This document shows positions 5,741 through 33,346 of a stretch of 64,000 bases of DNA, one piece after another (positions within the stretch are counted from its first letter, which is position 1; each line of letters begins with the position of its first letter). Origin of the DNA: Candidatus Fraserbacteria bacterium. Lineage in GTDB: Bacteria > Bipolaricaulota > Bipolaricaulia > RBG-16-55-9 > DRXL01. Where the stretch lies: NCBI GenBank assembly GCA_037440025.1, contig JBBIUX010000006.1, forward strand, positions 11,296-75,295, in the 5' to 3' direction. A model generated the notes under the pieces. The model saw nothing but the letters and a program-made list of their open reading frames with translations, searched no databases and was not told the DNA's origin. Made by a program: the position numbers and the translations under genes.

Positions 5741-5748
5741 AAACGATC

Positions 5749-8547: not shown

Positions 8548-8576
8548 TTGACATCGAGGCCCGATTATGCTAGGAT
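8548..8576 (+). promoter_or_regulatory. Putative sigma70-type promoter TTGACA-17-TAGGAT
   Basis: Consensus -35 with 17-nt spacer; a short 25-codon ORF (8610-8687) with GGGAGG SD follows. Confidence 0.45.
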
Positions 8577-8701
8577 ACTACCAAGTTTTTTGTAGAGGGA
8601 GGAAACGACGTGGAGAAGAACCGAGCTCGATGGGGCTCGGGCGGGAACAGGGGCGATCTTCCAACCTCGCTCCACGGTCATTCTTGAAGAGAGCGTTCGA
8701 T

Positions 8702-8731
8702 TTGACAAGAGGGGGGAGCGGGTGTTAGAAT
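8702..8731 (+). promoter_or_regulatory. Putative strong promoter TTGACA-17-(TGt)TAGAAT with extended -10, upstream of a ~215-nt leader
   Basis: TTGACA at 8702-8707, TGtTAGAAT at 8723-8731; GTG start of the large gene at 8951 with AGGAGG SD. Confidence 0.5.
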
Positions 8732-8950
8732 GTCGGCAAATTCACGCCTTGGGAGTGTATCTGGTGCTTTCACACAGAGAGACAGGACCAAGGGCGAGCG
8801 TTTTCGTGAGCGTATGCAGTATCTTCATCGGGAGGTGGTCGCAACTACGAAAGCACGGATCGTTTTGGTAGACGCTCGCATCGGCGCGGGCGTTGTTTGT
8901 TCTGAGCATGTTGGCCATATTTTAGACCCCAAATAGAAGGAGGTATACAA

Positions 8951-11900
8951 GTGAAGAAGAGCAGAGTACAGTTGGCGAGCCTGATCGCCGTGATCGCTTT
9001 TATTGTGGGCATCACGGCCATGGCTCCAGCAGCGCTGGCCAGTAAAGGCCAGGTTCTTCTCACGGATATTAACGGAACGCCCAAGCAATATTGGCGCGTG
9101 GGCGAGACACTCTTTATCACGGTGATCGACCCCGATGAGAACCGTGATTCAGATGAGGTCGAGTTCCTGAAGGGCAGTTTGACGACCCAGTTGGGGGACG
9201 AGGTCCCCGTGGTGCAGCTCTGTGCCGGACCGTGCCCGGAGTTCCCAGATTTGAAGGCCGGTGGGGCCATTGGGGACTTTGTGAGCAGTAGGGAAGGCGA
9301 AGACAAGTTGGTCTTGCAAGAGACCGGAGTCAATACCGGGGTCTTCCGTAGCCAAACCGGTATTCTCATCACCAAAGCGACGGTTGGCCAGCCGGTCACC
9401 TTAGGGGACCAGCTCCTGCAAGTCTTCGATACCGATACGCTCTTTGTGCGCTATCAAGACCCGACCAACCCCAACGATATCGGCATCAATCTGGGCAAGA
9501 TTTATACCGGCACCGCGCCGGGCACCCGAGCACGTGCTATCATCTCTATTACTGATGCTGGTGGGAACCCGGTCAGTCTGACGGACATCGGTCGCACGAT
9601 CTTCGTCACGGTCACTGACGCGGACGAGAACACCAGCCCCACCACCATCGAGACGGTCAAGGCCACGCTCTTCAACGCCCGCACCAAGCAGGCGATGGAG
9701 CTGACCCTGGTCGAGACCGGCCCTGACACGGGCGTCTTCAGAAATGTTGACGGCGTCATCTTAGTGGACTTCAAGAACAAGGGGCGGACGCTGGGCGCCA
9801 GTGAGCTTGATGCGCTCGATAAAGACACCATTCTTGCGTTCTATCAAGCGCCCGCCGGCGTCGTTCCGGTAATAACTCCGCCGACCGGGACACGCACCGA
9901 CGTCGGCGAGAGCGCGCTCATCCGATGTGAGCGCGTCGTCCCGGTGAAATTGGCCCCCGGTGCCGAGAGCGAGATCACCGTGCGCTGCACGGCCAAGCAA
10001 CAGCTGACCGCCATCATCATCAGCGATCGGCCCGATCCGGCCTTCACTGTCACCGGCGACACCCGCGGCGGCACGATCAGCCCGCTCGCCCCGGGACAGA
10101 AGTTCGAGCTCAAATACCGAGTGCGCGCCGGAGCCGCGCCGGGAACCTTCGCCATCACAGGCTCGGCGACCCCGGCAACAGCCGCAGGCGCCGATCCAGC
10201 CAATACCGTGACCTGGACCTCGAACATCGAAGTCGCAGCTTCCGGTGCGGCGAGCGCCTTTGGCTTCGCAGCCCTGAAGGTCACCACGGTAGATTCGAGC
10301 CTGGTGACCGTCACGCGCGACGTGCCCGATACCGTCGCAGCCAATAAGGAGTTCACCGTCAAGGTGAAAGTGACGGCGAAACAAGCGCTTCGCGCTCTGC
10401 TCGTCAACGACAACGTTGATGGCTGCACGCTCGTCGGGGGAACGGTCTCCCGCGCCGGAACTATTACCCCGCTCGAGCCGGGACAGTCGTTTGAGCATAG
10501 CTATAAGCTGACCTGCCCCGAGGGCACCATCACGATCACGGGCACGGTCACCCCGGTGACCGTAGCGGGCGCACAAGCCCCCGTTACTATTAGCTCGACC
10601 TTTACCGTCGGCGCGGTCCCCGTGGCGATGCTCGGCATGGGCGATATCAATGACCCCCATGACTTCGCGGTCGCCCAAGTGAAGGTCGCCCATCGCAACC
10701 CGGCGCGCATCTCGTTCATCGGCCCCACCGGGCAAGAGATCAGCGAGTTGCGCATCGGCGATGACGTCTTCGTCCAGGTCGAGGACCGCGACCAGAACGC
10801 CGACTCCGACAGGGTCGAGCGCGTCGTCGTCATGATCTTCGACATCAACGGCGGCCAGGAGCTGGAAGTCCTGACCGAGACGGGCGTCAACACCAGCGTC
10901 TTCCGCAACACCGGCCCGTTGAAGATCGTTCCCAAGGCTGTGGCTTCCTGCCCCGTCCCCGATGACCTGACGGTCTTCGGCCAGGGCCCGGAGGTCGTCT
11001 TCACGCCCACCGTGGACGCACAGAACGACGGGCAACTGGCAGTCGCCCGCGACGACGTCATCTACGCGACCTACTTCGACGACGATGTCGCAATGATCGA
11101 GAGCATTGACGAGATCAAGCGCGCTCTCGATGCCTTCGACGTCATCGCCATTACGGCTACGATCAAGCCTTCGGCCTTCGATCAGTTTGATAAGAAGATT
11201 CGATTCGTCAACGACGCCGGTCGGCCCATTGAAGAGTACAAGGTGGGCATGGACGTCTTCGTGCAGTTAGAGGACCCCATCTCCAACTTCCGCTCCGATC
11301 TGGTGGAGCAAATCCCGGTGATCGTGCTCGACCGCCACACGGGAGATCGTGAGTGCGTCACCCTGCAGGAGACCGGCCCCAACACGGGTCTGTTTATGAA
11401 CCAGCAGGGGTTGCCACTGCGCCGCGGCCTGCCCAGCGACATCAAGCTGGGCGACGGCATCCTGCAGATGCAGGATCGCGACAACATCGAAGCGCACTTC
11501 CAGGCCGCCGATAACCCCCAAGACTACGCGGCCACGTCCATCGGGATCATCCCGCTCTTTGAGCCGCCGACACCAGTGGCCAGGCCCACGGTCAAGTTCG
11601 ACCCGGCTTCCATCGAGATCGGCAAGCCCGTCTTCATCGAAGTAACGGACGCTGGTCGCAGTGGGACGCTCACGGATGCCGTGACGCTGACGCAGCTGCG
11701 CGGCGGCACGGTCGTCAAGACCTGGAAGGTCACCGTGAATCAGACGGCCCAGGCGGGCGTCTTCCGCAGCGAGTCTATCAGCACGGGTGAGCCCGGCAGC
11801 GGCGCCACCGTTGAAGCCCAAGACGGCGACACTCTCAGAGCCGAGTACGCCGGCGCCGATCCGGCCACGGCCACGCTCTTTATCGCCAAATTCGAAGTGC

Positions 11901-12154
11901 AGGCCTTCACCGTCTCGCCCAACCCCGCGACCACCCGGGCGACCTTCCGGGTTGAGGGCACCGGCATCGAGCGGACCGCCGTGAGCGTCTACGATCTGTC
12001 GGGGAAGCTCGTCTTCACCGGCAGCAGGGCCGGCGCGTCGCTGGAGTGGACCGTCTCTGACGTGGGCAACGGCGTCTACCTCTTCGTGATCACGGCGTCG
12101 GGCAAGGGACAGACCAAGGCGAGCAAGGTCATAAAGCTCGTGGTCTTGCGCTAG
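8951..12154 (+). CDS. Large secreted adhesin-like protein: signal peptide, 5-6 cadherin-like Ca-binding repeats (..D.D.N...ETG.NTGVFR..), two DUF11-like Ig repeats, T9SS type-A C-terminal sorting domain
   Basis: Repeats VIDPDENRDSD / VTDADENTSP / VEDRDQNADSD / LEDPISNFRSD each ending ETGxNTGVFR; C-terminus SPNPATTRATFRV...VSVYDLSGKLV...GVYLFVITASGKGQTKASKVIKL matches the Por_Secre_tail pattern. Confidence 0.7.
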   Translation: MKKSRVQLASLIAVIAFIVGITAMAPAALASKGQVLLTDINGTPKQYWRVGETLFITVIDPDENRDSDEVEFLKGSLTTQLGDEVPVVQLCAGPCPEFPDLKAGGAIGDFVSSREGEDKLVLQETGVNTGVFRSQTGILITKATVGQPVTLGDQLLQVFDTDTLFVRYQDPTNPNDIGINLGKIYTGTAPGTRARAIISITDAGGNPVSLTDIGRTIFVTVTDADENTSPTTIETVKATLFNARTKQAMELTLVETGPDTGVFRNVDGVILVDFKNKGRTLGASELDALDKDTILAFYQAPAGVVPVITPPTGTRTDVGESALIRCERVVPVKLAPGAESEITVRCTAKQQLTAIIISDRPDPAFTVTGDTRGGTISPLAPGQKFELKYRVRAGAAPGTFAITGSATPATAAGADPANTVTWTSNIEVAASGAASAFGFAALKVTTVDSSLVTVTRDVPDTVAANKEFTVKVKVTAKQALRALLVNDNVDGCTLVGGTVSRAGTITPLEPGQSFEHSYKLTCPEGTITITGTVTPVTVAGAQAPVTISSTFTVGAVPVAMLGMGDINDPHDFAVAQVKVAHRNPARISFIGPTGQEISELRIGDDVFVQVEDRDQNADSDRVERVVVMIFDINGGQELEVLTETGVNTSVFRNTGPLKIVPKAVASCPVPDDLTVFGQGPEVVFTPTVDAQNDGQLAVARDDVIYATYFDDDVAMIESIDEIKRALDAFDVIAITATIKPSAFDQFDKKIRFVNDAGRPIEEYKVGMDVFVQLEDPISNFRSDLVEQIPVIVLDRHTGDRECVTLQETGPNTGLFMNQQGLPLRRGLPSDIKLGDGILQMQDRDNIEAHFQAADNPQDYAATSIGIIPLFEPPTPVARPTVKFDPASIEIGKPVFIEVTDAGRSGTLTDAVTLTQLRGGTVVKTWKVTVNQTAQAGVFRSESISTGEPGSGATVEAQDGDTLRAEYAGADPATATLFIAKFEVQAFTVSPNPATTRATFRVEGTGIERTAVSVYDLSGKLVFTGSRAGASLEWTVSDVGNGVYLFVITASGKGQTKASKVIKLVVLR

Positions 12155-12167
12155 CGAACCCACAAAT

Positions 12168-12197
12168 GTAGGGGCACGGCGGCGCCGTGCCCCTACG
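12168..12197 (+). terminator. Perfect 14-bp-stem palindrome GTAGGGGCACGGCG/CGCCGTGCCCCTAC after the adhesin gene (no U-tract)
   Basis: Exact inverted repeat seen directly; 13 nt after the stop codon. Confidence 0.5.
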
Positions 12198-12248
12198 GTA
12201 CACCAATGGTGCAAGCAATACGCAATGTATAAGGAGGTTAAGGAAACG

Positions 12249-13199
12249 ATGAACCGAAGTTTGATTCTGGCGTTGGCGCTCGTCCTTCTGACCGGCCTGA
12301 CGGCTGTGGCCCAAGAGGGCGTGGGAGCCAACCCAGTCTTCAAGAACGGCGTAGACGCGCGCGCGCTCGCCATGGGCGGAGCCTTCGTCGGCGTCGCCGA
12401 CAGCTACTCTGCGTGTTATTGGAACGCCGCGGGCGTCGCTAAAGCCGCTGCCGATCAGTCCATTAAAGTCGGCGGCATGAACACGAACCTGTTTGGAGCC
12501 GGCATCAACTACAATCACGCCGGGGCCACCTTTACGCTCTTTGGGATGCCCTGGGGCTTGAGCGTCTCGTTGGTGTCCATCACCGACATCCCGCTCGGCG
12601 ACGGCAGCATGGGCAGCAACACCGAGCTGCTCGGCACGTTCTGCGGAGCCTTCCCGCTCCCGCTGAACGGGATGAACGTCTCCGTGGGCGGGGCCGGTAA
12701 ATACTACAGCCACACGCTCTTAGATGAGTCGGCCACGGGCATCGGCTTCGATGGCGGCCTGCTGATTGACGGGCTGATTCCGGGCCTGACCATCGGCGCG
12801 GCGGCCTATGACGTGGGCGGCACGAAGATGAATTGGACCACCGGCTCAGTCGGGGTAGTGGACCAGCTCTTCCGTGTCGGCTTTGGCTTTGCCGTCTCGC
12901 CGGACTTTGTGCTGGCGGCGGGCGTGGACCTGTATGCCGGCGGGGAGATGGCGATCCGTGCCGGTGCGGAGTTCAAGGGGATTGGCCCCTTGGCGGTGCG
13001 TGCCGGTGCAGTCCGTCCGGCGGACAGCGAGCAGTTCGCGCTCACCGTTGGCGCCGGGCTGATGCTAGGCACCCTGGGCGTGGACTTTGCGTGGCTGCAG
13101 AACAACATGATCGTCGGCGAGGGCGCCAGCGACACGATCGTGCTCTCGGCTTCGTTCAGCTTCGGCGGCGCTGAAGAGATGGCGCCTCCGTCGCAGTAA
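12249..13199 (+). CDS. Outer-membrane beta-barrel protein, FadL/PorV/PorP-like; likely T9SS-associated
   Basis: Signal peptide, then ARALAMGGAFVGVADSYSACYWNAAGVA (FadL-family N-terminal motif); alternating beta-strand pattern; sits between two CTD cargo genes. ATG at 12249 with AAGGAGG SD. Confidence 0.5.
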   Translation: MNRSLILALALVLLTGLTAVAQEGVGANPVFKNGVDARALAMGGAFVGVADSYSACYWNAAGVAKAAADQSIKVGGMNTNLFGAGINYNHAGATFTLFGMPWGLSVSLVSITDIPLGDGSMGSNTELLGTFCGAFPLPLNGMNVSVGGAGKYYSHTLLDESATGIGFDGGLLIDGLIPGLTIGAAAYDVGGTKMNWTTGSVGVVDQLFRVGFGFAVSPDFVLAAGVDLYAGGEMAIRAGAEFKGIGPLAVRAGAVRPADSEQFALTVGAGLMLGTLGVDFAWLQNNMIVGEGASDTIVLSASFSFGGAEEMAPPSQ

Positions 13200-13281
13200 G
13201 GGGTACGAGACCATGTTCCGAACGGCTATCTTCACATCATCGGATAAGCAACTCGACAACAAAGAGAGAAGGAGGTACGAA

Positions 13282-16200
13282 TTGAAGTTGAGCAAGGCTC
13301 CGAACTTGCGGACGGTTATTATCGCCGTATTGGCTTTTATACTGATCGGAACTGCGGCAGATGCCTTCGGCCGCGAGCTGCGCGTCACCACTGCGGCTGA
13401 CCTCGTTAGCTGTGCGGCGGGTGTAGCGTTGGCAGCCGGCCCTGATGCAGGCCAGGTCTCGGCTCCAGGAGATACCTGTGTGGTTCTCCCGGGAACTTAT
13501 ATAGTAGCTGCCAACATTCTTGTTACTCTACAGAACCTTACCATTCGTTCAGCTATCGGTGCCAATGCGACCATCGTCAACTTAGCTACATTTGCAGTGC
13601 GCATCCAGCGAGATGGTGTGACCATCGGCGGACCAAAGATCGATCAAGGTCTGACCTTCCTGAATGGCAACTTTGCCGGCGCTATCCAGATCGGGACGGG
13701 TGCGCCCGTCGGCCAGGCGGATGAGAATATCACCATTCAGCACAACATCATCCGGAACAATGCCGGACCGGGCATCACAACGGTAGTCCCGACCTCGGTG
13801 GAGCTGTTCAAGTTCTTCCTGAACACGATCCGAGACAATCTCGGACCGGGCATCGTCTTCTTGAACGCCGGGTCGGTGGGCCGTCGTGGCCAGGACCGCA
13901 ACGTGGTCATCGAGCAGAACTACTTCGAGAACAACTTCGGTCCGAATATTATCTTCGGCAACGGCGGCAGCGTCGAACAGACAGCCATCCTGAACAACAC
14001 GATCAACCGAGCGTTCCTCGGCAGCGGCATCCAGTTCAGCAATACCGGCGAGGTGCGCGATTCGCTGATCGTGAAGAACCTTGTTCAGTTCAATACCTTC
14101 TTCGGGATGCTGTTCGTCAACACCGGCCGCGTGGATAACGTCCTGATCAAGGACAACACCGGCCCGACGCTCGATCAAGGGATCACCCGCAACATGGCCG
14201 GCGGCATTTACTTCATACTGCCCGTCACCGAGTTGCGTGACGTCACCATCGAGGGCAACAACATCAACTCGAACCAGAACTTCGCGGTTCCCTTCATCCT
14301 GGGCAACGGTATCTTCACGTTCGTCCCTGGAGACATCGAGGGGCTGGCCCTCACGGGGAACAACATTCGCCAGAACTGCAGCAACGGCGTCCTGAAGCTG
14401 CTCGGTGGCGACTTGGTGCGCTCAAGCTTCGACTCCAATAAGGTGTTCAACAACGGGTTTGGCATCGTCGCCGGCTGTCCCGTCTTCGGACCGAGCGCCG
14501 GCTTCATTGCCATCAACACGAATAATAACATCCAGGACAACAAGTTCTCCGGCAACGAGTTCCGCGAGAACAGTCTGACGGGTGCAACGCTGTTCACCAC
14601 GACCGGTGACATCAGCCGCCTGAGCTGGACCAACGATAAGTTCATCAAGAACACGGTCCGCGGCCTGTCGCTCTTCGTAGCGGCGACCGGCGACATCGCC
14701 GATCTCAGCACCAGCGGCATCGAGGTGTTAGAGAACCAGGCTGGTCCGGGCACGGGCGCAGACATCCGCACCTTGACCGGTGACATGGAGTCGTTCAACG
14801 TTGATAACAGCAAGTTCAACAACAACGGTGGCTTCGGCCTGCGCATCATCTCGCTTGGTGCGCCGCCGGCCCGCGGGGATATTGACTCAATCAAGATCAG
14901 CAACTCGCAGTTCAACTTCAACGGCACGCGCGCCCCGGTCGGTTTGGGAAGCGGCGTCCTGTTGGCTGCAGAGTCCATCCGCACCGTTGACGTGAGCAAG
15001 TCCGTGGGCACGAACAACAACGATCACGGCTTCAGCGCCGCATCCAGCCGCGATCTGGCGCTGTTCACGTTCACTGACGATGAGTTCTCCAACAACGACC
15101 GGAATGTCGATACTATCGGCAACGGCATTGACATCAGTGTCAACGAAGCGGCGAGCGAGATCACCGTGACTGGCAGCAAAGTCAACAGCAATAACAGCGG
15201 TATCAAGATCACGGCGCAAGATCGAATCGGGCGCAACTATGTGATCGAGAACAACCCAGAGATCAACAGTAACCGCGACGCGGGTATTGACTTATTCAGC
15301 GGGCGCGACCTGGATAGCGTGCGCATGGCCAACAACAGCTTGGCGCGCAACGCCATCGGCGTCCGGCTCGATGCCCACGATCGCGGTAGCCGTATCGAAC
15401 TCAACAAGAACAGAATCCTAGGGAACGACGGCGTGGGCGTCGGCGTGTTGCTCAATACCTCCGGCACGACCATCACTGAGAACAGCATCCGCAACAACGC
15501 CACGGGTATCGAAGCGCGCAAGGTGCGTGACAATAAGATCACCAAGAACAACATCGCGCGCAACGAGAACTTCGGCGTGGATGCCAACGCGCTCTCGCCG
15601 GGCGAGTCCATTGATGCCAAGGAGAACTGGTGGGGTGAGCCTTCTGGTCCAAAGCACGCCACCAACCCCGGCGGCATCGGCGACCGCGTCACCGACAAAG
15701 TGACGTTCGTGCCGTTCCTGACCGAGCCGGCCTTCCCCACGGAAGCCGTCTTCCAGATCGAGAACCTTGAACCGCTGACCTTTGATGTCACCGTGGGTGA
15801 CAGCGTGACCTTCAGGTATAGGATCAAGAACAACGGCACCGAAGAGGACACGCAGACCGTGACGATCACGATCAAGGACGGCCTGGGCAACGTCGTCCTG
15901 CAGACGAGCAAGCAGGTCACGGTCAACCCCGCGGGCTTCAGAGAAGATCAGTTCAGCTTCATCTTCCAGACGCCCGGCGAGTACACGGTGACCGTGGAGA
16001 CGCCCGACGACAGCAAGAGAGCCCAGGGAACCGTCGCCGGTGGAGCCGCGTGCTTGCCGTTCGCCTTGGACACCAACAAGAACAAGGTGCTCGACGACGC
16101 GGAGATCATCACCGCGATAGACCTGTGGGTCAAGAACGGCGATGTCCCCGGCTGCAGCCCACCACTGAAGATCAGCGACACCCAGATCATCCAGCTGATC

Positions 16201-16911
16201 GACCTGTGGGTCAAGGGCAGCCAGCTGACCGTGCCGTTGGGCGGCAAGTTCACCCCGGCCTCGGTCGTCAACCCGACGACCGCCAAGGTCGCGACCCTGG
16301 CCGCGAGCGTCCGCACCGTCCGCCCCGGTGAGTCCTTCACCGTGACGGTGCAGCTCGACGCCAAGGACGGCATCAACGGGCTGCTGATCGCCCAGAGCCT
16401 GCCCACCGGTTGGAGCGTCACGCCCGCTCAGCTCAATGGCGCGTACTACAAAGCTTCTGAGAACAAGTGGCTCTGGCTCAACGCCAAGGGCACGGTCATG
16501 CTCAGCTATACCGTGACCGTTCCGGCCAGCGCCGGGCCCGGCGTCTACACCATTGCCGGGCGGGTGAAGGCCGCGGTGCCCAGCGTGGAAGCGGAGCTGC
16601 AGCCCCTGACCGTCGAAGTGCTCGGTGCGCCGGTCGCTCTGGCGGTGAAGTCCATCACGCTCAGCCAAGCGCCGGTGCGCAACTCTGGGGCGTACTTCGT
16701 GGTCGAGGGCGTGGGGATCGCGCAAACGACGGTCCACGTCTTCAACTTGAGCGGCAAGCTGGTCTTCAACCAGAGTGCTCAGGGCAACGTCGTGCCGTTC
16801 TCGGCAGCGAGCGAGTTGGCCAACGGCGTCTATCTATACATCGTGACGGTCAAGGGTGCGGACGGGCAGACCGTGACGAGCAAGATCCAGAAGCTCGTCG
16901 TGCTCCGATAA
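13282..16911 (+). CDS. Secreted right-handed parallel beta-helix (NosD/pectate-lyase-like) repeat protein with an internal EF-hand/dockerin-like module and T9SS type-A CTD
   Basis: Dozens of ~22-aa N/G-rich beta-helix rungs; NWWGEPSGP motif; DTNKNKVLDDAE EF-hand loop; C-terminus ...VHVFNLSGKLV...GVYLYIVTVKGADGQTVTSKIQKLVVLR. Probable TTG start at 13282 with AGGAGG SD (ORF track start 13213). Confidence 0.7.
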   Translation: MKLSKAPNLRTVIIAVLAFILIGTAADAFGRELRVTTAADLVSCAAGVALAAGPDAGQVSAPGDTCVVLPGTYIVAANILVTLQNLTIRSAIGANATIVNLATFAVRIQRDGVTIGGPKIDQGLTFLNGNFAGAIQIGTGAPVGQADENITIQHNIIRNNAGPGITTVVPTSVELFKFFLNTIRDNLGPGIVFLNAGSVGRRGQDRNVVIEQNYFENNFGPNIIFGNGGSVEQTAILNNTINRAFLGSGIQFSNTGEVRDSLIVKNLVQFNTFFGMLFVNTGRVDNVLIKDNTGPTLDQGITRNMAGGIYFILPVTELRDVTIEGNNINSNQNFAVPFILGNGIFTFVPGDIEGLALTGNNIRQNCSNGVLKLLGGDLVRSSFDSNKVFNNGFGIVAGCPVFGPSAGFIAINTNNNIQDNKFSGNEFRENSLTGATLFTTTGDISRLSWTNDKFIKNTVRGLSLFVAATGDIADLSTSGIEVLENQAGPGTGADIRTLTGDMESFNVDNSKFNNNGGFGLRIISLGAPPARGDIDSIKISNSQFNFNGTRAPVGLGSGVLLAAESIRTVDVSKSVGTNNNDHGFSAASSRDLALFTFTDDEFSNNDRNVDTIGNGIDISVNEAASEITVTGSKVNSNNSGIKITAQDRIGRNYVIENNPEINSNRDAGIDLFSGRDLDSVRMANNSLARNAIGVRLDAHDRGSRIELNKNRILGNDGVGVGVLLNTSGTTITENSIRNNATGIEARKVRDNKITKNNIARNENFGVDANALSPGESIDAKENWWGEPSGPKHATNPGGIGDRVTDKVTFVPFLTEPAFPTEAVFQIENLEPLTFDVTVGDSVTFRYRIKNNGTEEDTQTVTITIKDGLGNVVLQTSKQVTVNPAGFREDQFSFIFQTPGEYTVTVETPDDSKRAQGTVAGGAACLPFALDTNKNKVLDDAEIITAIDLWVKNGDVPGCSPPLKISDTQIIQLIDLWVKGSQLTVPLGGKFTPASVVNPTTAKVATLAASVRTVRPGESFTVTVQLDAKDGINGLLIAQSLPTGWSVTPAQLNGAYYKASENKWLWLNAKGTVMLSYTVTVPASAGPGVYTIAGRVKAAVPSVEAELQPLTVEVLGAPVALAVKSITLSQAPVRNSGAYFVVEGVGIAQTTVHVFNLSGKLVFNQSAQGNVVPFSAASELANGVYLYIVTVKGADGQTVTSKIQKLVVLR

Positions 16912-17008
16912 AGCGAGTGGATCTCCTCGGAGGGGCGAAGCAAGACGATGCTTTGCCCCTCCAGGGGAATTACACACTATGGAAATGGAACAGGAGGTTT
17001 AGCAAGAG

Positions 17009-17800
17009 ATGAAGTTCCTTAAGAATCCGCTTGGCTTGTTTGCTTTAGCGGCCTTAGCTGTCGCCGGGATCGCGTTCCTGGTGTGGGCTGCTGGGGCGAA
17101 CGTTAACTGCGTCGGCGGTGTGTGCTATAGCACCAACGGAAGAGCTACCAATGCTGGTGGCACGAATGACGCTAACGTGACTACTGGCGTCTTCACCGGA
17201 GAGAACGACACCGCCTCCATCGAGTGCCGCGTGGTCGGCGACGATGGCGGCGATAATACCTTCAGTGCTGGCGGAGGCAGCGATACCCTCTATTTGGGGC
17301 CTCGCAAGGATGATGGTACTCAAGCAGCTATCACTGTCGAAGGCGAAGACGGCGACGACGTGATCGTTGATGGATGCAGCAGCAATAATACATTGAACGG
17401 TGGCAACGGAAACGACGTCATCATCGAAGATGCCCAAGGTACACTCGACGGCGGCGATGGCAACGACCTGTTGGCCGGCGGCCAGGACAATGACACTCTC
17501 ACCGGCGGCAATGGGAACGATGTGCTCAATCCCGGACCTGGAGATGACACCATAAACTCTTCTTCTGCAGACGGCGACGACATCGTGATCATCCACGCTG
17601 GTGATACACCTGCAGGGGCGACTAGTGACGACTACACCTGTTACGGCCACGACACCATCCTGAAGTTCGGCTACGGAAGGGATGGGGTTGTCGTGCTAAC
17701 TGCAGGACAAAAGACAGAAGAGACTGATCCGCAGACGGGCGGGACGTATACTATCACGGCTGGTGCCAACAGCACCTGCACCATCATCTACGTGGAGTAA
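17009..17800 (+). CDS. Small secreted/anchored RTX-repeat (hemolysin-type Ca-binding GGxGxD) protein, paralogue 1
   Basis: N-terminal hydrophobic segment; GGNGNDVII / [27 protein letters not shown] nonapeptide repeats; conserved C-terminus ...CTIIYVE. Confidence 0.6.
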
Positions 17801-17880
17801 GGGCTGGCGAGAGGACCCTCGGTCACCCGAGGGTCCCTCAGCCAATTAGATATTATTAGGAAAAGGAGGCCAAGCGAGAG

Positions 17881-18786
17881 ATGAAGCTCTTCAAGCTTGT
17901 GCGCAATCATTTCGCTCTGTTCTTTCTAGCGGCCTTGGCGGTCTCCGGCGTGGCCTACCTGGTGTGGGCCGTCGGAGCCAACGTCAATTGTATCGCCGGC
18001 ACGTGCTCCAGCACCAACGGCAACCAAGATACCACTTCTCCCTATGACAGCACCACCGTCTTCACAGGGGAGAACGACACGGCATCTATTGAGGCAGTGG
18101 GGAGTGGAACCAGTTGTACTAACAATATATTCCAACTGGGTGGAGGCACTGATGTTGCCTACATCCTTGACCCCCAGACTGCTTCTAAGGAGCCCATCCA
18201 GGTCCAGGGTGAAAGTGGCGATGACGTGATCCTCGATGGCTCAACGGCGAACAACTGTCTCTTGGGCAATGACGGCAACGACTTCATCGCCGAGGATGCC
18301 GTGGGCATACTCGTCGGCGGCAATGGGAACGACCTGCTCGCTGGCGGCCGGGATAATGACGTTTTGGGAGATACTGATCTTAACGGTACTTGCGCCGCTA
18401 ACGAGAGTGATCCCAACAACGATGTCTTCACCGGTGGGCCAGGCAATGATACCTACTGCACCGCCGATAACGATGGCGATGACATCGTGATCATCCACGC
18501 TGGCGATGTGCCTGCTAACAACAACGAGGATTACACCTGCGAAGGGAACGACACGATCCTGTTGTTTGGGTTCAATTTGGATCTGGTGCAAACCAAGCTT
18601 CCCACGGAGACAACGGGAAACTTCTACAACCTGACGGCTGCTCCGGCTGGCTTAGCTGGGAACCAAGTAGCCGTGGGCGATCCGGTGAACAACCCGACAG
18701 GCTCCAATACAGGAGCACGGTATACCTTCACGGCTAACAATACTGGTGCTGCTACTGGCACCTGCAACATCATCGCGGTCGAGTAA
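17881..18786 (+). CDS. RTX-repeat protein, paralogue 2
   Basis: Same architecture and many identical segments ([28 protein letters not shown]-terminal CNIIAVE). Confidence 0.6.
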   Translation: MKLFKLVRNHFALFFLAALAVSGVAYLVWAVGANVNCIAGTCSSTNGNQDTTSPYDSTTVFTGENDTASIEAVGSGTSCTNNIFQLGGGTDVAYILDPQTASKEPIQVQGESGDDVILDGSTANNCLLGNDGNDFIAEDAVGILVGGNGNDLLAGGRDNDVLGDTDLNGTCAANESDPNNDVFTGGPGNDTYCTADNDGDDIVIIHAGDVPANNNEDYTCEGNDTILLFGFNLDLVQTKLPTETTGNFYNLTAAPAGLAGNQVAVGDPVNNPTGSNTGARYTFTANNTGAATGTCNIIAVE

Positions 18787-18851
18787 GGGCTGGCTATAAA
18801 GAGCGCAGTGGGGAAGCCCTCGGAGCGCACGCTTCGGGGGCTTTTGGTTTT

Positions 18852-18920
18852 GAATCACGGAAGGCACGGAATCGCCACGGAGAGCACAGAAGAATGGTTC
18901 TCTCTGTGCCCTCCGTGATG
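18852..18920. repeat. CACGGAAG-type long hairpin repeat (family C)
   Basis: GAATCACGGAAGGCACGGAATCGCCACGG...CTGTGCCCTCCGTGATG imperfect inverted repeat; same family at 23487, 24298, 25286, 25923, 31209, 31616, 32321, 33231. Confidence 0.75.
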
Positions 18921-18984
18921 CAGAGCTTGCACGGGAAAGGGGGAGTAGGTAGGATAGCAAAGTGATTCTCTGGAGGCATTATAT

Positions 18985-19404
18985 ATGAAATGGCGTCCGG
19001 TCTATCTTGTTGGTATCGGAATCGTCGTGATCGCAGTGATCGGCGGCGGGCTCTGGTGGTGGCAAACGAGTTCCAATACCCTTGCCCCTACCCCACGCTA
19101 TCGCCCTGCCGTGCAAACCCCCCTCAGGACCGATGACCCCAACATCCGCGCAACTCTCGTCGTCTTGCAGTTGGGCAGCAACGAGGGCTTGCTGCGCGTC
19201 GTGCGCCACTACCTGCAACAGAACCCCCAAGCCGACTTCTATCACTTCATCGCCCCAGAGGGGACTATGCTGGCCCTGCGCACGGCAACTTTCTCCGACC
19301 CGGCAAAGCTCCCCCAACGGTTGCGCCAGCGCCTCGCCGCATGGCCCAAGATAACGCGCGCGGGGCGAGAAGGACTATACACCATCTACCATCTGGAGAA
19401 GTAG
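18985..19404 (+). CDS. Hypothetical membrane-anchored protein
   Basis: N-terminal TM helix (VYLVGIGIVVIAVIGGGLWWW); preceded by TAGGATAGC -10-like motif. Confidence 0.4.
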   Translation: MKWRPVYLVGIGIVVIAVIGGGLWWWQTSSNTLAPTPRYRPAVQTPLRTDDPNIRATLVVLQLGSNEGLLRVVRHYLQQNPQADFYHFIAPEGTMLALRTATFSDPAKLPQRLRQRLAAWPKITRAGREGLYTIYHLEK

Positions 19405-19489
19405 CGAGTGAGCCGGACGCGCGTTTGACAACGACTCATCCTTTTTTCTAAACTTAACTTGTTCACACTAAGAAGAGGGAGGAAAGCCC

Positions 19490-21100
19490 ATGCGGCAGAA
19501 GAAACTCTGGCTCCTGGCAGGACTGCTCCTTGCATTCCAGGCTCTAGGTTCCGCAACTATTGAACAGGCGCTCGATCAGAACAAGAACGGCTTCTTGGAT
19601 GACTTAGAGATGCTCCAGGCACTCACTCTCTGGGTACGGCAAACCCCCGTGCCCGGAACAGAGGGCGTGATCATCAGCGATACCCAGATCTTGCAACTGC
19701 TTCAGATGTGGATCAAACAGACACCGATCCCAGGGGAACAGCCACCTCCTCCCCCGCCACCGCCTACAGCCGCCACAGCCTGCCCTGACGCCCCCGCCGG
19801 CGCGCGGGTCTTGACCGTACCCGCTCAGTTTCCCACGATCCAACAAGCCATTCAGAACGCCCGCGACGGCGATAAGGTTTTGGTCAAGCCGGGCACTTAC
19901 AGCGGAGGCATTGTGATCAATAAAGGGATCATCTTCGAAAGCCAGGAGGGCAAGAGCCTCACCAACATTGCCAGCACCGGCGACCAGAAGGGGATCGTCG
20001 TCCTACGGACCGTCGGCGCGGTGATCCGGGGCTTTGGCATCAGCGGGGGAAGATCCGGCATCAGTATCGAAGCCTCCAGTCGAGTCTGTGTCGAACAGAA
20101 TGAAATCTTCAGCAACGTTGGCTCTGGCATTGAGATCGCGGGCAAGCTGACCGAATTGGGCCGCGAAGCCCAGGACATCACCATCGTCAACAACGCCATT
20201 CGCAACAACGTGGGCTATGGCGTCATCGCGACGGAATTCCTGCGCGGGAAGATCCTCGGTAATCAGATCATGGACACGGCAGCTAACCCCGACGGAAGCG
20301 CTGGTTACGGGATCGCGGTCATCGGCGGGAGTCGCGTCGAAATCCGCAAGAATAAAATCTTCCGGTCGCGCTCCCATGGTCTCTTCACCAGCGAGATCAC
20401 CGATCTGCAAATCGCGGAGAACGAGATAAGAATCTCCCCGACAGCACCGGGGGCGACACCGGCAGCGGGGATGGTCGTCGGTCACGGCGCAATTGGAGCG
20501 TTGGTTACAAATAACGCTGTCAGTGAGAGCGAGATCGGCATTCTCATCGAGGAGGTGCGCAGTATCACGCTGCGCGATAATACTATCAGTCGGAGCCGGG
20601 TCGCGGGGGTGCGGGTCAATAGGTCGCTCTTGGTCCGCCTAGAGGGAGATCGCATCACGGAGACACAGCCTCCTCCCATGAGCCCTGAGCGCCCCGCCAT
20701 CGGCGTAGAAGCGCTCAACGACTCCACGGTAAGCTTGACGGGAGTGATCATCCAACGGAGCTTCAGCTATGGCTTGCTGGTGTTGAGCAGGGCGGAAGTC
20801 GAGGTCATGCAGAGCGTGATAGAGCAGACAGCCGGACGACCCGGAGTGTTGGGACGAGGAGTGGGCGTCCAGGGCGCGCTCCTAAAGATGAGAGATAGCA
20901 CCATCGCTCAAAACGCTGACGATGGAGTTGCCGTGCTGGCCAACGGACGGGCGGAACTTTCGGGCAATACAATCAGTGATCATAGCAATTTCGGCATCTT
21001 TGCTGATCCCACTGGCGCCGTACAGTGCCCTGTCGCAAATGTCTTTATCAATAATGAACAGAACCGCTCCGTCAATGTGCCGACAGCTTGCGAAAGCTGA
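19490..21100 (+). CDS. Secreted parallel beta-helix protein with N-terminal EF-hand/dockerin-like module and poly-Pro linker
   Basis: Signal peptide; DQNKNGFLDDLE EF-hand loop + LWV/ISDTQILQL helices; PPPPPPPP; NosD-like beta-helix rungs. Confidence 0.6.
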   Translation: MRQKKLWLLAGLLLAFQALGSATIEQALDQNKNGFLDDLEMLQALTLWVRQTPVPGTEGVIISDTQILQLLQMWIKQTPIPGEQPPPPPPPPTAATACPDAPAGARVLTVPAQFPTIQQAIQNARDGDKVLVKPGTYSGGIVINKGIIFESQEGKSLTNIASTGDQKGIVVLRTVGAVIRGFGISGGRSGISIEASSRVCVEQNEIFSNVGSGIEIAGKLTELGREAQDITIVNNAIRNNVGYGVIATEFLRGKILGNQIMDTAANPDGSAGYGIAVIGGSRVEIRKNKIFRSRSHGLFTSEITDLQIAENEIRISPTAPGATPAAGMVVGHGAIGALVTNNAVSESEIGILIEEVRSITLRDNTISRSRVAGVRVNRSLLVRLEGDRITETQPPPMSPERPAIGVEALNDSTVSLTGVIIQRSFSYGLLVLSRAEVEVMQSVIEQTAGRPGVLGRGVGVQGALLKMRDSTIAQNADDGVAVLANGRAELSGNTISDHSNFGIFADPTGAVQCPVANVFINNEQNRSVNVPTACES

Positions 21101-21138
21101 GAACAAGAGATAACTATACAAAGAGGGGGGCAGACTCT

Positions 21139-23355
21139 ATGCGAGTGATAATTGTTGTTGGGGTGTTGCTAGTGGTCGGAATAGTTGCTGAGGCACAGAC
21201 GCTACGAGTGACCGTGCCGGTGGATCTTGTCAATTGTGTATCGGGAGTGCCGCTGGTCGCGGGCCCGGACGCGGGGAGCGCTGTGGGTCCCGGCGGCGCT
21301 TGCGTTGTCGCTTCGGGCACTTACCCTGTAGCAGTTACCATTACCGTGCCCGGATTGATTCTGATTTCCACAAACGGCGCCATGGCCACGACGATCGCTG
21401 GCCCAGTCACTATAACTGCTGCGGCCAACGGTGTCACCCTTGGTCGAGCAGGCCAAGGATTTATGATCACCGGGGGCCTGACCGTAGGCGCTAATCAGAA
21501 CATTACTGTTGAGGACAGCATCTTCACAGGAAGTGGAGGGCCGGGAGTGTTGGTCGGTGCTCCAGGGGCTGTCCGTAATCTACGTTTTTTGAATCTTCAA
21601 GTACGCGCTAACGGAGGCGGGGGGATCATCTTCACGGGAGGATCTGTCGACGATCTGCTCATCACCGGGAGCGTGATCGAGACCAACGGAGGCCCGGGTA
21701 TAGGTTTCGCTATTGGCGGAAGCGTTCGCAGCTTCAACCTCTCTAGCAACCGCATCATTGGCAATGCGATCGGAGGGATCATCTTCGTTGGCCCCACCAA
21801 CGATGTTGAAGATAGCGAATTTTCTAATCTTATTGTACAAGGCAATGCCGGTCCGGGATTGGCTCTTGCTAACACCGGGCGCGTCATGGGGGTGGTGGTC
21901 TCTGGCAGTAACATCTCCAGTAACACCGGCGACAACGTCGTCTTTGGGAACGGCTTGACCTCAGATGTGGTGTTCGAGAACAACACTATAGAAAACGCCG
22001 CCGCCAACGGCGTAAACTTTTCCAATACTGGTGCGGTGGAAGACTTTGTCTTCCGGAACAACACCATCCAACGCAACGGCTTTAACGGCGTCTTGTTCTT
22101 CAACACCGGCAGGGTAGATAGCATTCAGATCCTTGACAACCGTCTGCGCAATAACGGTTTCCATAATCTTTTTATTAATCATCTGGGGCCTCGTGATTTC
22201 TCGGTCGGGCGGTTGACGATGGAGGGCGGCTTCGTCGACCAAGCGGGCGACAACGGCATCCGTATTGTGACTCTGACCACCGACATTGTCTTCATCACCT
22301 TGACCAATGTTCAAATCAGCAAGAACGGGGGGATAGGGGTCTGCTTACGCACAAACGGGGGAGCTATCGCTGACATCAAGTTTGAAGGAGCAGTTATCAA
22401 AGAAAACCAAGGGGGAGCAGGCTTAACTCCCTGTGATACAGCAGCTGCGCCGATCGGCTCTGGAGCGGAATTGATCACGCTGACGGGGAACATCGGTCCG
22501 GCAGAAGTTACTGGAAGCACCTTTGCCAATAATGGCGGCTTCGGCCTGCGCTTGCAATCGTTGGGGGCCGGTGGCGCGATGGGCGACGTGGGGCCGGTGG
22601 CTGTGCGAAACAGCGCATTCGATCAGAACGGCACGCGGGCCCCGGCGGGCTTGGGCTCTGGGTTCACCGCTCGAGGCCGAGGCGTCCGCGACATCTCCAT
22701 CAACCCCACCACAGCTAATAATAACAACGATCACGGCGTAGATATTCAAGCGACCAGTGATATTAGCAATGTCTCCATTACTGGAGGCGAGTTCTCCAAT
22801 AATGACCGCAACGTAGACACGATTGGCGCGGGGATCAACATCAGCGCCACGCAACGCCTGAGCGGTGTGAAAGTGACAGGAGCCAAGCTGATGTCGAATT
22901 CCCAGGGGGCGCGTGTTCAGGCCGACCGAGCTTCGGATAATCACATCAACCAGTGCGAGATCTCTGGCAATAGACAAGCTGGAGTTGAGGCCTCGATCAC
23001 GTCGGGAGACGATGTGGATGCAACGAACAACTACTGGGGCAGCCCTTCCGGCCCCAGCGGGACCAACGGCGCTGTGGGGCAGGTCACGGCCAGTCCGTTC
23101 TTGAGCGCCCCGCCGGGCGGTCCCACGCCGCCTACACCACCGACGCCACCCACACCGCCAACTCCACCGACCCCGCCGACGCCACCGGCGGGAGGCTTTG
23201 CCGCCTGCGCCGCAGGCGCAGATAACAGAATTGACGATCTAGAAATGCTGGGCATTCTCGATGCATGGATCAAGGGGCAGAGCTATCAAGCCTGCGGGGT
23301 GCCCACGGATTTGGACGTCTTGCAGGCGTTGGATCGCTGGGCGCGGGGAGTGTAG
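21139..23355 (+). CDS. Secreted parallel beta-helix protein, paralogue of the 13282 gene, with (PTPPT)n linker and C-terminal dockerin-like module
   Basis: Long stretches collinear with the 13282 product (NNNDHG..EFSNNDRNVDTIG.GI.IS, NYWGSPSGP); PTPPTPPTPPTPPTPPTPP; ATG at 21139 with GAGGGGGG SD. Confidence 0.7.
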   Translation: MRVIIVVGVLLVVGIVAEAQTLRVTVPVDLVNCVSGVPLVAGPDAGSAVGPGGACVVASGTYPVAVTITVPGLILISTNGAMATTIAGPVTITAAANGVTLGRAGQGFMITGGLTVGANQNITVEDSIFTGSGGPGVLVGAPGAVRNLRFLNLQVRANGGGGIIFTGGSVDDLLITGSVIETNGGPGIGFAIGGSVRSFNLSSNRIIGNAIGGIIFVGPTNDVEDSEFSNLIVQGNAGPGLALANTGRVMGVVVSGSNISSNTGDNVVFGNGLTSDVVFENNTIENAAANGVNFSNTGAVEDFVFRNNTIQRNGFNGVLFFNTGRVDSIQILDNRLRNNGFHNLFINHLGPRDFSVGRLTMEGGFVDQAGDNGIRIVTLTTDIVFITLTNVQISKNGGIGVCLRTNGGAIADIKFEGAVIKENQGGAGLTPCDTAAAPIGSGAELITLTGNIGPAEVTGSTFANNGGFGLRLQSLGAGGAMGDVGPVAVRNSAFDQNGTRAPAGLGSGFTARGRGVRDISINPTTANNNNDHGVDIQATSDISNVSITGGEFSNNDRNVDTIGAGINISATQRLSGVKVTGAKLMSNSQGARVQADRASDNHINQCEISGNRQAGVEASITSGDDVDATNNYWGSPSGPSGTNGAVGQVTASPFLSAPPGGPTPPTPPTPPTPPTPPTPPTPPAGGFAACAAGADNRIDDLEMLGILDAWIKGQSYQACGVPTDLDVLQALDRWARGV

Positions 23356-23486: not shown

Positions 23487-23573
23487 GAATCACGGAAGGC
23501 GCGGAATCGCCACGGAGAGCACGGAAGATTTTTTCTGTGTCTTCCGTGGCCCGTTCGGTGTCCTCCGTGATTC
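23487..23573. repeat. Family C CACGGAAG hairpin repeat, copy with promoter tail
   Basis: ~135 bp near-identical to 31209-31338. Confidence 0.8.
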
Positions 23574-23578
23574 AAAGT

Positions 23579-24297: not shown

Positions 24298-24393
24298 GAA
24301 TCACGGAAGGCGCGGAAATCGCCACGGGGGACACGGAAACGGCAGGTGTTTTCTGTGCCTTCCGTGGCTCTTTCTTCTGTGGGCTCCGTGGTT
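24298..24393. repeat. Family C hairpin repeat
   Basis: GAATCACGGAAGGCGCGGAAATCGCCACGG...GGCTCCGTGGTTC. Confidence 0.75.
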
Positions 24394-25789: not shown

Positions 25790-26013
25790 TCCCTTCGCGG
25801 TGGTTTTTGACCTAACCCCCCAGCCACCTTCCCAGCGAAGAGTCTAGGAGTCGAGGGTCGAGAGACTCCAGACCCCCAGACTCTGGACCTTTCTGTAAGG
25901 GAGGGGCTAGGGGAGAGGTCTGCATCACGGAAGGCGCGGAATCGCCACGGGGGACACGGAAACGGCAGGTGTTTTCAGTGCCTTCCGTGGCTCTTTCTGT
26001 GGGCTCCGTGGTT
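25790..26013. repeat. Composite repeat block: partial family D, family E (GAGTC-rich), family C hairpin
   Basis: Near-duplicate of the 25127-25349 block in the opposite arrangement around the small membrane gene. Confidence 0.75.
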
Positions 26014-27455: not shown

Positions 27456-28952
27456 TTGCTCTTTCCAACACGAAGACGGGTTTTGCTATTCGCTGCCATA
27501 GCTCTGTTGGGAGCAGCTTTGGGATTTGGCGGTCTCTTAGAAAGCTGCCAGCCCCCCAATAAAGCGCCGTTAGCGCGCTTCAGCTTTAGCCCCAAAGAGC
27601 CCAAAATCGGGGAGACCGTCACGTTTGACGGCTCGGCTTCGCGAGATCCCGACGGCAAGATTGTCAGCTATCTGTGGGATTTTGGCGACGGAGCGACCGC
27701 TCAGAACGTGACGACAACGCATGCGTTTCAGGAAGACGGCGAGTACGATGTCATTCTGCAGGTAATGGATGACCGCGGCACGAGCTCTAATGTGGAGAAA
27801 ACAGTGCGCGTTGCTCCGCTCAACGAACTGCCTACAGCAAGCTTCACCGTCGCCCCCAGCGAGCCGAAGACAAACCAATCTGTCACTTTTGACGCTTCAG
27901 CATCGGTTGATCCAGACGGCACGATCACAGCTTATACGTGGGAGTTCGGCGATCAAACGACAGGGCAAAACAAGATCGCCACGCACGTCTATAAGACGGC
28001 GGGCACGTACACCGTGAAGCTCACGGTGACGGACAACAAGGGCGCGAAATCTTCGGCCACTAAAGGAATTACTGTTATAGAGGCTCCGCCCAACGAGCCG
28101 CCGTTTGCGAAACTTGACTTCACCCCCGCGACCGCGACGGTCAATGAGCCCGTGAACTTCGACGCTTCCGAATCGCGCGACGACGGCCAGATTGTCAAAT
28201 ATCAATGGGATTTTGGCGACGGTGCCAGCGGTGAGGGTCAGCAGGTCTCGCACACATATAAAACGGCTGGGACGTTTATCGTCAAGCTGACGGTGACAGA
28301 CGATCTCGGTGCAACTGGTTCGACCACGCGCAGCGTGATCGTTCGCGAGTCTGCTGTCATAGAGTCGTTCGCCGTGCCAGGGGAGGAGCCCAGCGGGCTC
28401 GCCTGGGACGGGGAGAACTTCTGGCTGGCTGATATAGACAGCGAGAAGATCTATAAGCTCGATAAAGCCGGGAAGATTCTAAGCTCGTTCGCTGCCCCAG
28501 GGAGCACGCCGACCGGGCTGGCCTGGGATGGGGAGAACTTGTGGGTTGCCGATAGCCTGGATGCACGGATTTATAAAGTCAATCCCCAGAATGGAAAAGT
28601 CACCGGCGCTTTTGATCTCCCCAACTCCGATCCCCAAGGGCTCGCCTGGGATGGCGAGAATCTCTGGGTGATGGACGCCGACACGGGGAAGCTCGAAAAG
28701 CTCGACTCCAACGGGGATGTGCTCGAATCGTTTGACTCCCCCGGCGACTCCCCGGCAGGCCTTACCTGGGACGGCAAAAATCTATGGATGAGTGACAGCG
28801 ATGCCGGGTTAATCAAAATTGACCCAGCGACGGGCAAACAGATCAGCACCGTCAAAGCCCCCGGTCCCGACCCGCGCGGCCTGGCTTGGGATGGGACGTA
28901 TCTGTGGGTCGTGGATGGTGAGGACCTCAAAGTCTATCGGGTGGCGCCATGA
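27456..28952 (+). CDS. Lipoprotein with three PKD domains and a beta-propeller of ~6 'GLAWDGENLWV' blades
   Basis: VTFDGSASRDPDGKIVSYLWDFGDG x3; periodic P.GLAWDG.NLWV.D x6; TTG start, LLESC lipobox-like. Confidence 0.6.
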   Translation: MLFPTRRRVLLFAAIALLGAALGFGGLLESCQPPNKAPLARFSFSPKEPKIGETVTFDGSASRDPDGKIVSYLWDFGDGATAQNVTTTHAFQEDGEYDVILQVMDDRGTSSNVEKTVRVAPLNELPTASFTVAPSEPKTNQSVTFDASASVDPDGTITAYTWEFGDQTTGQNKIATHVYKTAGTYTVKLTVTDNKGAKSSATKGITVIEAPPNEPPFAKLDFTPATATVNEPVNFDASESRDDGQIVKYQWDFGDGASGEGQQVSHTYKTAGTFIVKLTVTDDLGATGSTTRSVIVRESAVIESFAVPGEEPSGLAWDGENFWLADIDSEKIYKLDKAGKILSSFAAPGSTPTGLAWDGENLWVADSLDARIYKVNPQNGKVTGAFDLPNSDPQGLAWDGENLWVMDADTGKLEKLDSNGDVLESFDSPGDSPAGLTWDGKNLWMSDSDAGLIKIDPATGKQISTVKAPGPDPRGLAWDGTYLWVVDGEDLKVYRVAP

Positions 28953-31701: not shown

Positions 31702-31707
31702 CAACGC

Positions 31708-33295: not shown

Positions 33296-33346
33296 CCAAC
33301 GCTTGTACAGTGAGGGGGAATGGAGTACCATAACAAGGTGATCTCT

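Follow-up and report, generated by a model that had tools for sequence, protein, structure and literature searches.

Dockerins are built from two duplicated segments, each of which comprises a Ca2+-binding loop and a helix (PMC12484212). The dockerin family (PF00404, types I-III), the EF-hand pair (PF13499, PF13405, PF00036; pattern PS00018) and DUF7151 (PF23657), a Cys-flanked EF-loop repeat of collagen-like proteins, are the closest counterparts of the module described here, which is present in three copies in a 64,000-nucleotide stretch of contig JBBIUX010000006.1 from a Candidatus Fraserbacteria bacterium (assembly GCA_037440025.1, positions 11,296 to 75,295 of the forward strand; hereafter, the window, with positions counted from its first letter). 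This extracellular module of about 55 residues represents an uncatalogued, EF-hand-derived family that is dockerin-like in layout and deployment, but not in membership.

An initial annotation of the window, made from the sequence alone, had reported such a module in three beta-helix proteins, at N-terminal, internal and C-terminal positions. In-frame translation agrees with this placement, and the three hosts, denoted proteins A, B and C, match the Beta_helix family with E-values between 1e-21 and 6e-30. The copies are 52-62 amino acids long and are located internally (A), behind the signal peptide (B) and at the C-terminus (C). Together with their loops and linkers, they are positioned as follows.

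16048-16227, + strand: module copy A (A type), ACLPFALDTNKNKVLDDAEIITAIDLWVKNGDVPGCSPPLKISDTQIIQLIDLWVKGSQL, with a canonical EF loop and a conserved Cys pair
16069-16104, + strand: EF loop of copy A, DTNKNKVLDDAE, matching PS00018
19553-19735, + strand: module copy B (canonical type), ATIEQALDQNKNGFLDDLEMLQALTLWVRQTPVPGTEGVIISDTQILQLLQMWIKQTPIPG, with an AlphaFold2 (AF2) model at a predicted local distance difference test score (pLDDT) of 96.6 and a PS00018 match
19574-19609, + strand: EF loop of copy B, DQNKNGFLDDLE, matching PS00018
19736-19780 (approximate), + strand: poly-proline linker EQPPPPPPPPP... joining module B to the beta-helix, read from the translation
23122-23193, + strand: Pro/Thr linker PTPPTPPTPP..., (PTP)n, ahead of module C, read from the translation
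23194-23352, + strand: module copy C (C type), GFAACAAGADNRIDDLEMLGILDAWIKGQSYQACGVPTDLDVLQALDRWARGV, supported by a C-type subfamily alignment of nine sequences and an AF2 model

Copy A comprises residues 946-1005 of the open reading frame (ORF) that begins at 13213, and carries one cysteine ahead of the loop and another in the hairpin (AC-LPF ... PGC-SPP). Copy B, residues 22-82 of its protein, directly follows the signal peptide (...AFQALGSA) and is itself followed by a poly-Pro run; its layout is a short helix, the EF loop, a helix ending in LWV, a VPGT hairpin and a second helix ending in MWI. Copy C forms the final 53 residues of its protein, behind a PT-rich linker that the initial annotation had also recognized. 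Its first loop, AAGADNRIDDLE, is degenerate, lacking acidic or amide residues at positions 1 and 3, and it contains a conserved Cys pair (C-AAG ... C-GVP). The likeness of the three copies is far beyond chance: in BLASTP comparisons, B and A are 48% identical (E 7e-16), and C matches A with an E-value of 6e-8 and B with an E-value of 3e-5. A hidden Markov model (HMM) of the three copies, run against the six-frame translation of the window, revealed no fourth copy, the next match having an E-value of 0.26. Because DNA identity between the copies is only 47-54%, they are old paralogous modules rather than products of recent duplication. Recent shuffling via DNA duplication is ruled out by this low identity together with the conservation of each of the three subtypes in orthologs from other genomes.

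Further occurrences, the search for which had been suggested at the outset, proved numerous. When 1.84 billion cluster representatives were searched exhaustively by HMMER with a five-sequence profile, 330 of them matched at E<=1e-3, including 57 at E<=1e-10, and re-scanning of the top 150 produced 140 full-length modules. Word-indexed protein searches recovered no more than 2 short proteins with the 3-copy profile and 9 with the 87-sequence profile, and are unfit for a census. About 5% of the top census matches belong to another family (DUF7151/collagen proteins, which match partially, over multiple stretches) and have only the first loop in common with the module. The consensus of the 140 full-length modules is tIEqALDxNxNgxIDDxEILxAIxxWIxGxxVPGTxxxIxDxxILxLIxLWIxGxpi, with two invariant tryptophans and near-invariant D17, E19 and D43 (B-module numbering). 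Within their hosts, 32 of the 140 modules are N-terminal, 47 internal and 61 C-terminal, with flanks rich in Pro, Gly, Ser and Thr; proline accounts for 15% of the 15 upstream residues, against a background of 5.6%. The hosts contain a wide variety of extracellular domains: PKD, Big_9, Y_Y_Y, Beta_helix/NosD, CARDB, DUF11, FecR, CHU_C, SGL/NHL propellers, Peptidase_S8 and cupredoxin. The module is nearly always single in a protein, with two copies in a few (P0003, P0007, P0053), and there are free-standing proteins of 93 amino acids that consist of a signal peptide and the module, with nothing else. In the source databases, ten family members bear the labels “NosD”, “beta-helix repeat” or “hypothetical”. 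When 87 modules were scanned with the Pfam and NCBIfam models, all scores stayed below the curated cutoffs, and we found no description of the module in the literature on the Fraserbacteria and Bipolaricaulota phyla. Thus, it is an unnamed domain family that is absent from both Pfam and NCBIfam.

Conserved free-standing proteins of 89-94 amino acids with a signal peptide and the module are also encoded in three Joint Genome Institute (JGI) metagenome loci, L063-L065 (positions 8001-8282). These have a cysteine near each end and lack the DxNxN loop; their genes adjoin a glutamate dehydrogenase gene, and PKD/VWA surface proteins are encoded nearby.

The AF2 model of the B type, built from an 87-sequence alignment (pLDDT 96.6, predicted template modelling score 0.81), comprises helices at residues 3-7 (short), 17-29 and 43-55, which are separated by a loop at 8-16 and a hairpin at 30-42. 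The C type, modelled from its own nine-sequence alignment, has a pLDDT of 92.8 and helices at 4-10, 18-30 and 42-54. Since the order and spacing of the helices agree between the two models, copy C shares the fold of B. A profile of the first loop-helix matches that of the second with an hhalign probability of 97.4% and an E-value of 1.6e-11, which shows that a loop-helix unit was duplicated within the module. Hence the geometry of a dockerin half-site, which the initial annotation had seen in the module, does not hold: the whole module is the counterpart of a full dockerin or EF-hand pair, with Ca ligands in the first loop only. It folds on its own, is bounded by linkers and is free in position.

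For the loop, we applied the PS00018 pattern as a regular expression. The first loop matches in 107 of the 140 modules, copies A and B among them, and the second loop in 0 of 140; copy C yields no match. The canonical EF-hand loop that the initial annotation had seen in the module therefore stands for A and B, but not for C, where positions 1 and 3 are missing and a Cys pair is present instead. In the B and A types, the ligand set of the first loop is D1, N3, N5, G6, a hydrophobic residue at 8, D9 and E12, and this loop most likely binds one Ca2+, as judged from these residues; the second loop is devoid of Ca ligands. A census of cysteines in 140+ modules found none in 118, a pair joining the N-terminal segment and the hairpin in 17, a pair in the N-terminal segment and the tail in 4, and another pair in 2; the sole module with only the hairpin cysteine is a truncated remnant. 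There are three subtypes in the database, all represented in the window and each conserved across genomes: canonical (B), canonical loop with a Cys pair (A), and Cys pair without loop positions 1 and 3 (C). The Cys pair of the A and C types most likely corresponds to a disulfide between the N-terminal segment and the hairpin, as would suit a module that is exported, and we infer that, in the C type, this disulfide replaces the Ca site.

Comparison with known families places the module next to EF-hands. When the family profile was compared with all PDB sequences, the 84 matches at E<=10, albeit weak, were all to EF-hand proteins (best, SCaMC-1, E 1e-4; others include neurocalcin, GCAP2, NCS-1, ALG-2 and troponin C), with an alignment that covers the short helix and the loop and runs into the beginning of the following helix, and there were no dockerins among them. 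Below threshold, Pfam models matched as follows: EF-hand_7 in 42 of 87 modules, EF-hand_6 in 33, DUF7151 in 49 and Dockerin_1 in one. The EF-hand_7 matches have E-values of only 1.6e-4 to 1 (module B scores 18 bits, the cutoff being 30), and no member reaches a Pfam EF-hand gathering score. In part like an EF-hand pair, the module is predicted to contain, in its first half, a helix, a 12-residue loop with canonical positions 1, 3, 5, 6, 8, 9 and 12 (Glu), and another helix, the unit being duplicated into a pair. Unlike an EF-hand pair, it has three helices in the model instead of four, given that the second unit lacks the entering helix and that of the first is very short; an invariant Trp ends both helices, and the second loop is without Ca ligands. 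Also unlike EF-hand pairs, the module is extracellular, linker-delimited and mobile, and includes Cys-pair variants without the loop. With DUF7151, the module shares the LDxNxNGxLDxxE loop, but the W-ending helices and the second half are absent from that family, and only the first ~20 residues of the module align (positions 22-40 of the 46 in the model); the best E-value is 3e-4, and where the cutoff is 27.2, copies A and B reach 13.6-15 bits.

The parallels with dockerins are those of layout and deployment: a size of about 60 amino acids, duplicated EF-hand-derived loop-helix segments, attachment through Pro/Thr linkers to many unrelated secreted proteins, and many copies per genome in a restricted lineage. 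The differences start from the definition given above, in that the duplication is present, whereas a second Ca loop is found in none of the 140 modules; one Ca site is predicted, and none in the C type, compared to two in dockerins, with no symmetric second site. Furthermore, the helix follows the pattern AIxxWIxG, in contrast to the LKRYxL type of two PDB-verified dockerins, and the hosts in the sample examined are not carbohydrate-active enzymes. The CelS dockerin that we used as a query has identical counterparts in PDB (2mte/1daq), and comparison with PDB also retrieved the CelD dockerin; against these two C. thermocellum dockerins, the family has an hhalign probability of 0.8%. The profile comparison proposed initially thus gave weak matches to EF-hands and did not support membership among dockerins. 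By sequence, then, the module is EF-hand-derived, and its layout parallels a whole dockerin, yet it is not a member of the dockerin family.

The distribution of the module was mapped by a DNA scan with the degenerate, back-translated pattern DxNxNxx[ILFM]DDxE[IM]xxAxxxW, which matches 96 of 151 retrieved proteins. Across 185,579 species, with one genome each, the scan gave 57 loci, virtually all of which were upheld by HMM re-scanning that also recovered extra copies close by. Nearly all of these loci belong to metagenome-assembled genomes (MAGs) of Fraserbacteria, Bipolaricaulota/Acetothermia and their allies. The labels are Ca. Fraserbacteria, Ca. Bipolaricaulota/Acetothermia, Bacterium HR16, “uncultured Thermotogae” (TPA bins) and, for one bin without classification, “uncultured bacterium”; there is also one weak Altiarchaeota match. 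At NCBI, Fraseribacteriota and Bipolaricaulota are separate candidate phyla. Overall, Ca. Fraserbacteria and Bipolaricaulota/Acetothermia are essentially the only groups with the module. Their genomes each encode dozens of secreted proteins that bear it and are otherwise unrelated; at least 28 distinct modules are present in the Fraserbacteria MAG JAJCYT01 alone.

Two arrangements are of note in their own right. In Ca. Fraserbacteria OFTM103 (L055, JAJCYT010000017.1), six tandem paralogous genes, the modules of which count among the 28 of JAJCYT01, fill the whole 8 kb, and each encodes, in this order, a signal peptide, an N-terminal module, a PPLMGDD linker and an NHL-repeat beta-propeller, most of the proteins ending in QKFCGG. 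In several related Logan contigs (L002-L005, SRR277300xx; for example, L002, positions 962-1177), a C-type module forms a 71-amino-acid ORF without a signal peptide or an N-terminal Cys. This ORF shows 79% DNA identity to positions 23209-23349 of the window, the upstream region being unrelated and containing small toxin-antitoxin-like ORFs, and it is probably a remnant of a rearrangement.

In our reading, duplication of a loop-helix unit of the EF-hand type gave an extracellular module of ~55-60 residues. It opens with a short helix, the 12-residue Ca loop and a helix that ends in L-W-I-x-G; behind a VPGT hairpin follows another helix with this ending. One Ca2+ would be held by the first loop of both the canonical (B) and the A type, the ligands of the second loop having been lost; in the A and C types, a disulfide would staple the N-terminal segment to the hairpin, and the C type has lost the Ca ligands as well. 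Joined to its hosts at either end or internally by linkers rich in Pro, Thr, Gly and Ser, the tag, stabilized by Ca2+ or a disulfide, could dock secreted enzymes and adhesins on a common receptor, be it a scaffold protein or a component of the cell envelope. Docking is the best mechanism that we can suggest because the distribution of the module resembles that of dockerins, and, by this analogy, we give even chances to its being a docking or retention tag for a shared receptor and, hence, a functional analogue of dockerin. The Ca-dependent docking put forward in the initial annotation is accordingly plausible, but its restriction to the three beta-helix proteins is too narrow in view of the many unrelated passenger domains found lineage-wide. 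A weak hint comes from the surface positions after each W-I (alignment positions 30 and 56), which in JAJCYT01 are occupied mostly by L and T, compared to mostly K/R and K in other genomes; a genome-specific signature at two symmetric positions is what the interface with a shared receptor might show.

Several observations weigh against a docking function. Among the window proteins scanned, there is no receptor or partner, neither a cohesin (no match in 18 proteins, in line with the initial annotation, which had noted that none was evident) nor another repeated candidate. Clustering of the ORFs in the 57 loci, where antisense ORFs in GC-rich DNA are a confounding factor, produced no convincing recurrent neighbour family. 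The binding of Ca2+ is a prediction from sequence only, and the similarity of the fold to dockerins is borderline and not significant (Foldseek E>=0.8, template modelling (TM) scores 0.50-0.54). Some hosts have another route of attachment to the surface, given that protein A bears a sorting domain of the type IX secretion system (T9SS). Finally, in a comparison aimed at co-evolution with a receptor, the identity of modules within a genome is 0.49 compared to 0.43 between genomes, a small gap in a sample selected by pattern. A more far-reaching version of the docking hypothesis, in which the module is the “dockerin” of an undescribed Fraserbacteria/Bipolaricaulota surface-assembly system that tethers dozens of enzymes, propellers and beta-helix adhesins to a non-cohesin receptor, with the three subtypes encoding different receptor specificities or Ca dependence, is possible, but the balance tilts against it.

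The strongest competitor, which we nevertheless consider doubtful, is a structural module without any partner, that is, a spacer or stabilizer rigidified by Ca2+ or a disulfide, comparable to the PKD, CARDB and Ig spacers, which would lend secreted proteins stability or reach. This would be compatible with the absence of a partner among the scanned window proteins and the neighbours in the 57 loci, the single Ca site and the co-occurrence of the module with PKD, Big_9 and CARDB, and both invariant tryptophans lie on hydrophobic faces of the helices and, hence, look structural. However, tandem repetition is the norm for spacers, whereas very few hosts have more than one copy of this module, and its frequent location at the extreme N- or C-terminus, past a long flexible linker, leaves nothing to span. 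Nor would a spacer be expected to occur as a free-standing protein with only a signal peptide, and strong lineage-specific expansion over unrelated hosts is what tags for targeting or anchoring typically show.

That the module is a true, highly divergent dockerin, with the cohesin-bearing scaffoldin encoded elsewhere in the genome, seems unlikely. The duplicated loop-helix architecture of about dockerin size, and the attachment by linkers to many secreted proteins, would fit, and the highest Foldseek TM-scores among PDB chains go to dockerins (8x39_A, 0.54; 4fl4_J, 0.53; 6kgf_D, 0.50-0.52), but these matches, like those to EF-hand proteins, are not significant. The lone Dockerin_1 match has a sub-threshold E-value of 0.058, and the hhalign and PDB profile comparisons, along with the scan for cohesins in the window, argue in the same direction. 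In addition, the second Ca loop is missing, the entering helix is short, and position 12 of the loop is Glu, in the EF-hand style, as opposed to Asp in the two PDB-verified dockerins.

EF-hand pairs commonly dimerise, and the module could be a homotypic oligomeriser that cross-links the proteins bearing it, such as the three beta-helix proteins of the window, into a surface lattice; this comes close to the idea of the initial annotation, but we regard it as improbable to a similar degree. Hosts are encoded side by side, both in the window (B and C) and in the six-gene array described above, and a few proteins have two copies. The conservation of three subtypes across genomes points to distinct, maintained specificities or structures rather than to a single self-associating surface, and AF2 already models the monomer with high confidence when no partner is present. 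Two last readings can be dismissed, namely that the resemblance reflects chance or low complexity and that the segment is one more rung of the beta-helix: the BLASTP E-values range from 3e-5 down to 7e-16, there are 330 database relatives, the flanks are poly-Pro or PT linkers, and structure prediction, the check proposed for a rung, gave all-helical folds for both B (pLDDT 96.6) and C (92.8).

Fraserbacteria and Bipolaricaulota (Acetothermia) are uncultivated. The ~55-residue tag can readily serve to mark the secreted and surface proteome of this lineage, and it is a candidate handle on the retention or assembly of these proteins. Should there be a receptor, the module would represent a second, independently evolved EF-hand-derived docking system beside cohesin-dockerin and, possibly, an orthogonal small affinity pair. 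At minimum, it merits a domain-family entry, from which the annotation of hundreds of “hypothetical” proteins would gain.

The three host proteins in the window have the following composition.

13282-16911, + strand: protein A; signal peptide, long parallel beta-helix, CARDB-like Ig domain, module, Ig-like domain and T9SS type-A C-terminal sorting domain
19490-21100, + strand: protein B; signal peptide, module, poly-Pro linker and NosD-like beta-helix
21139-23355, + strand: protein C; signal peptide, beta-helix, (PTP)n linker and C-terminal module, with an ATG start

The gene starts underlying the initial annotation seem correct; that of protein A is TTG at 13282, behind AGGAGG, the longest ORF beginning at 13213. 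Protein A matches Beta_helix (E 1.4e-21) and NosD (1.4e-10) in Pfam and, at the C-terminus, the TIGR04183 Por_Secre_tail model (28.9 bits, cutoff 23). Orthologs with 50-58% identity are encoded in five Fraserbacteria/Bipolaricaulota loci (L062, L046, L015, L038 and L041). In L001, a JGI metagenome locus syntenic with the window, the ortholog of protein A (6802-10327) undergoes a frame change just upstream of the module and is called as two genes, of 1059 and 108 amino acids, a split that reflects either an assembly error or a pseudogene. Protein B (Beta_helix, 6.5e-30; NosD, 2.6e-23) has an ortholog with 54% identity in the Fraserbacteria locus L060, adjoining the ortholog of protein C. The latter protein (Beta_helix, 1.1e-21) has orthologs in L060 (63% identity) and L015 (49%). 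In place of the terminal C-type module, the L060 ortholog (3326-6157; 63% identity in the beta-helix) has a module of the canonical type and, behind it, a T9SS-like C-terminal domain; the 3' module region has therefore been exchanged between orthologs.

Upstream of protein A, at 12225-13199, the window encodes a PorV/PorQ-like outer-membrane barrel (NF033709, E 7.6e-16, under the curated cutoff), which is flanked, within 8951-16911, by two proteins with TIGR04183 C-termini (38.8 and 28.9 bits, cutoff 23). The PorV-like protein and the adhesin of the window are 89% and 85% identical, respectively, to those of L062 (Fraserbacteria G05_MAG_00009), and the gene order around the barrel and the T9SS-type cargo is also found in both L001 and L062. 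The presence of T9SS-like cargo signals together with a PorV-like gene in a Fraserbacteria-like genome may merit a separate look.

Between the genes for proteins A and B, at 17009-17800 and 17881-18786, there are two adjacent genes for paralogous small proteins that have a hydrophobic anchor at the N-terminus and contain Ca-binding nonapeptide repeats (GGxGxD) of the RTX type, with E-values of 1.4e-11 and 3.8e-3 for the Pfam HemolysinCabind model. Because these are located between module-bearing genes, the cluster is rich in extracellular Ca-binding proteins. Downstream, at 27456-31147, a secreted-type protein with three PKD domains and an SGL propeller, and a Peptidase_S8 subtilase, are both without the module; these domain types bear the module elsewhere.

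The window also contains a dispersed intergenic repeat of ~90-100 nucleotides with the consensus ATCACGGAAGGCGCGGAATCGCCACGGAGGGCACGGA..TTTTTTCTGTGCCTTCCGTGGC...GTGCGCTCCGTGATTC, copies of which are located as follows.

~18851-18919, - strand: dispersed repeat
23489-23574: dispersed repeat
24300-24374: dispersed repeat
25921-26001: dispersed repeat
31567-31719: dispersed repeat
33232-33314: dispersed repeat

The repeat contains an inverted repeat around a T-run and looks like a repetitive extragenic palindromic (REP) element, a miniature inverted-repeat transposable element (MITE) or a terminator; two copies are also present in the related Logan contig L002.

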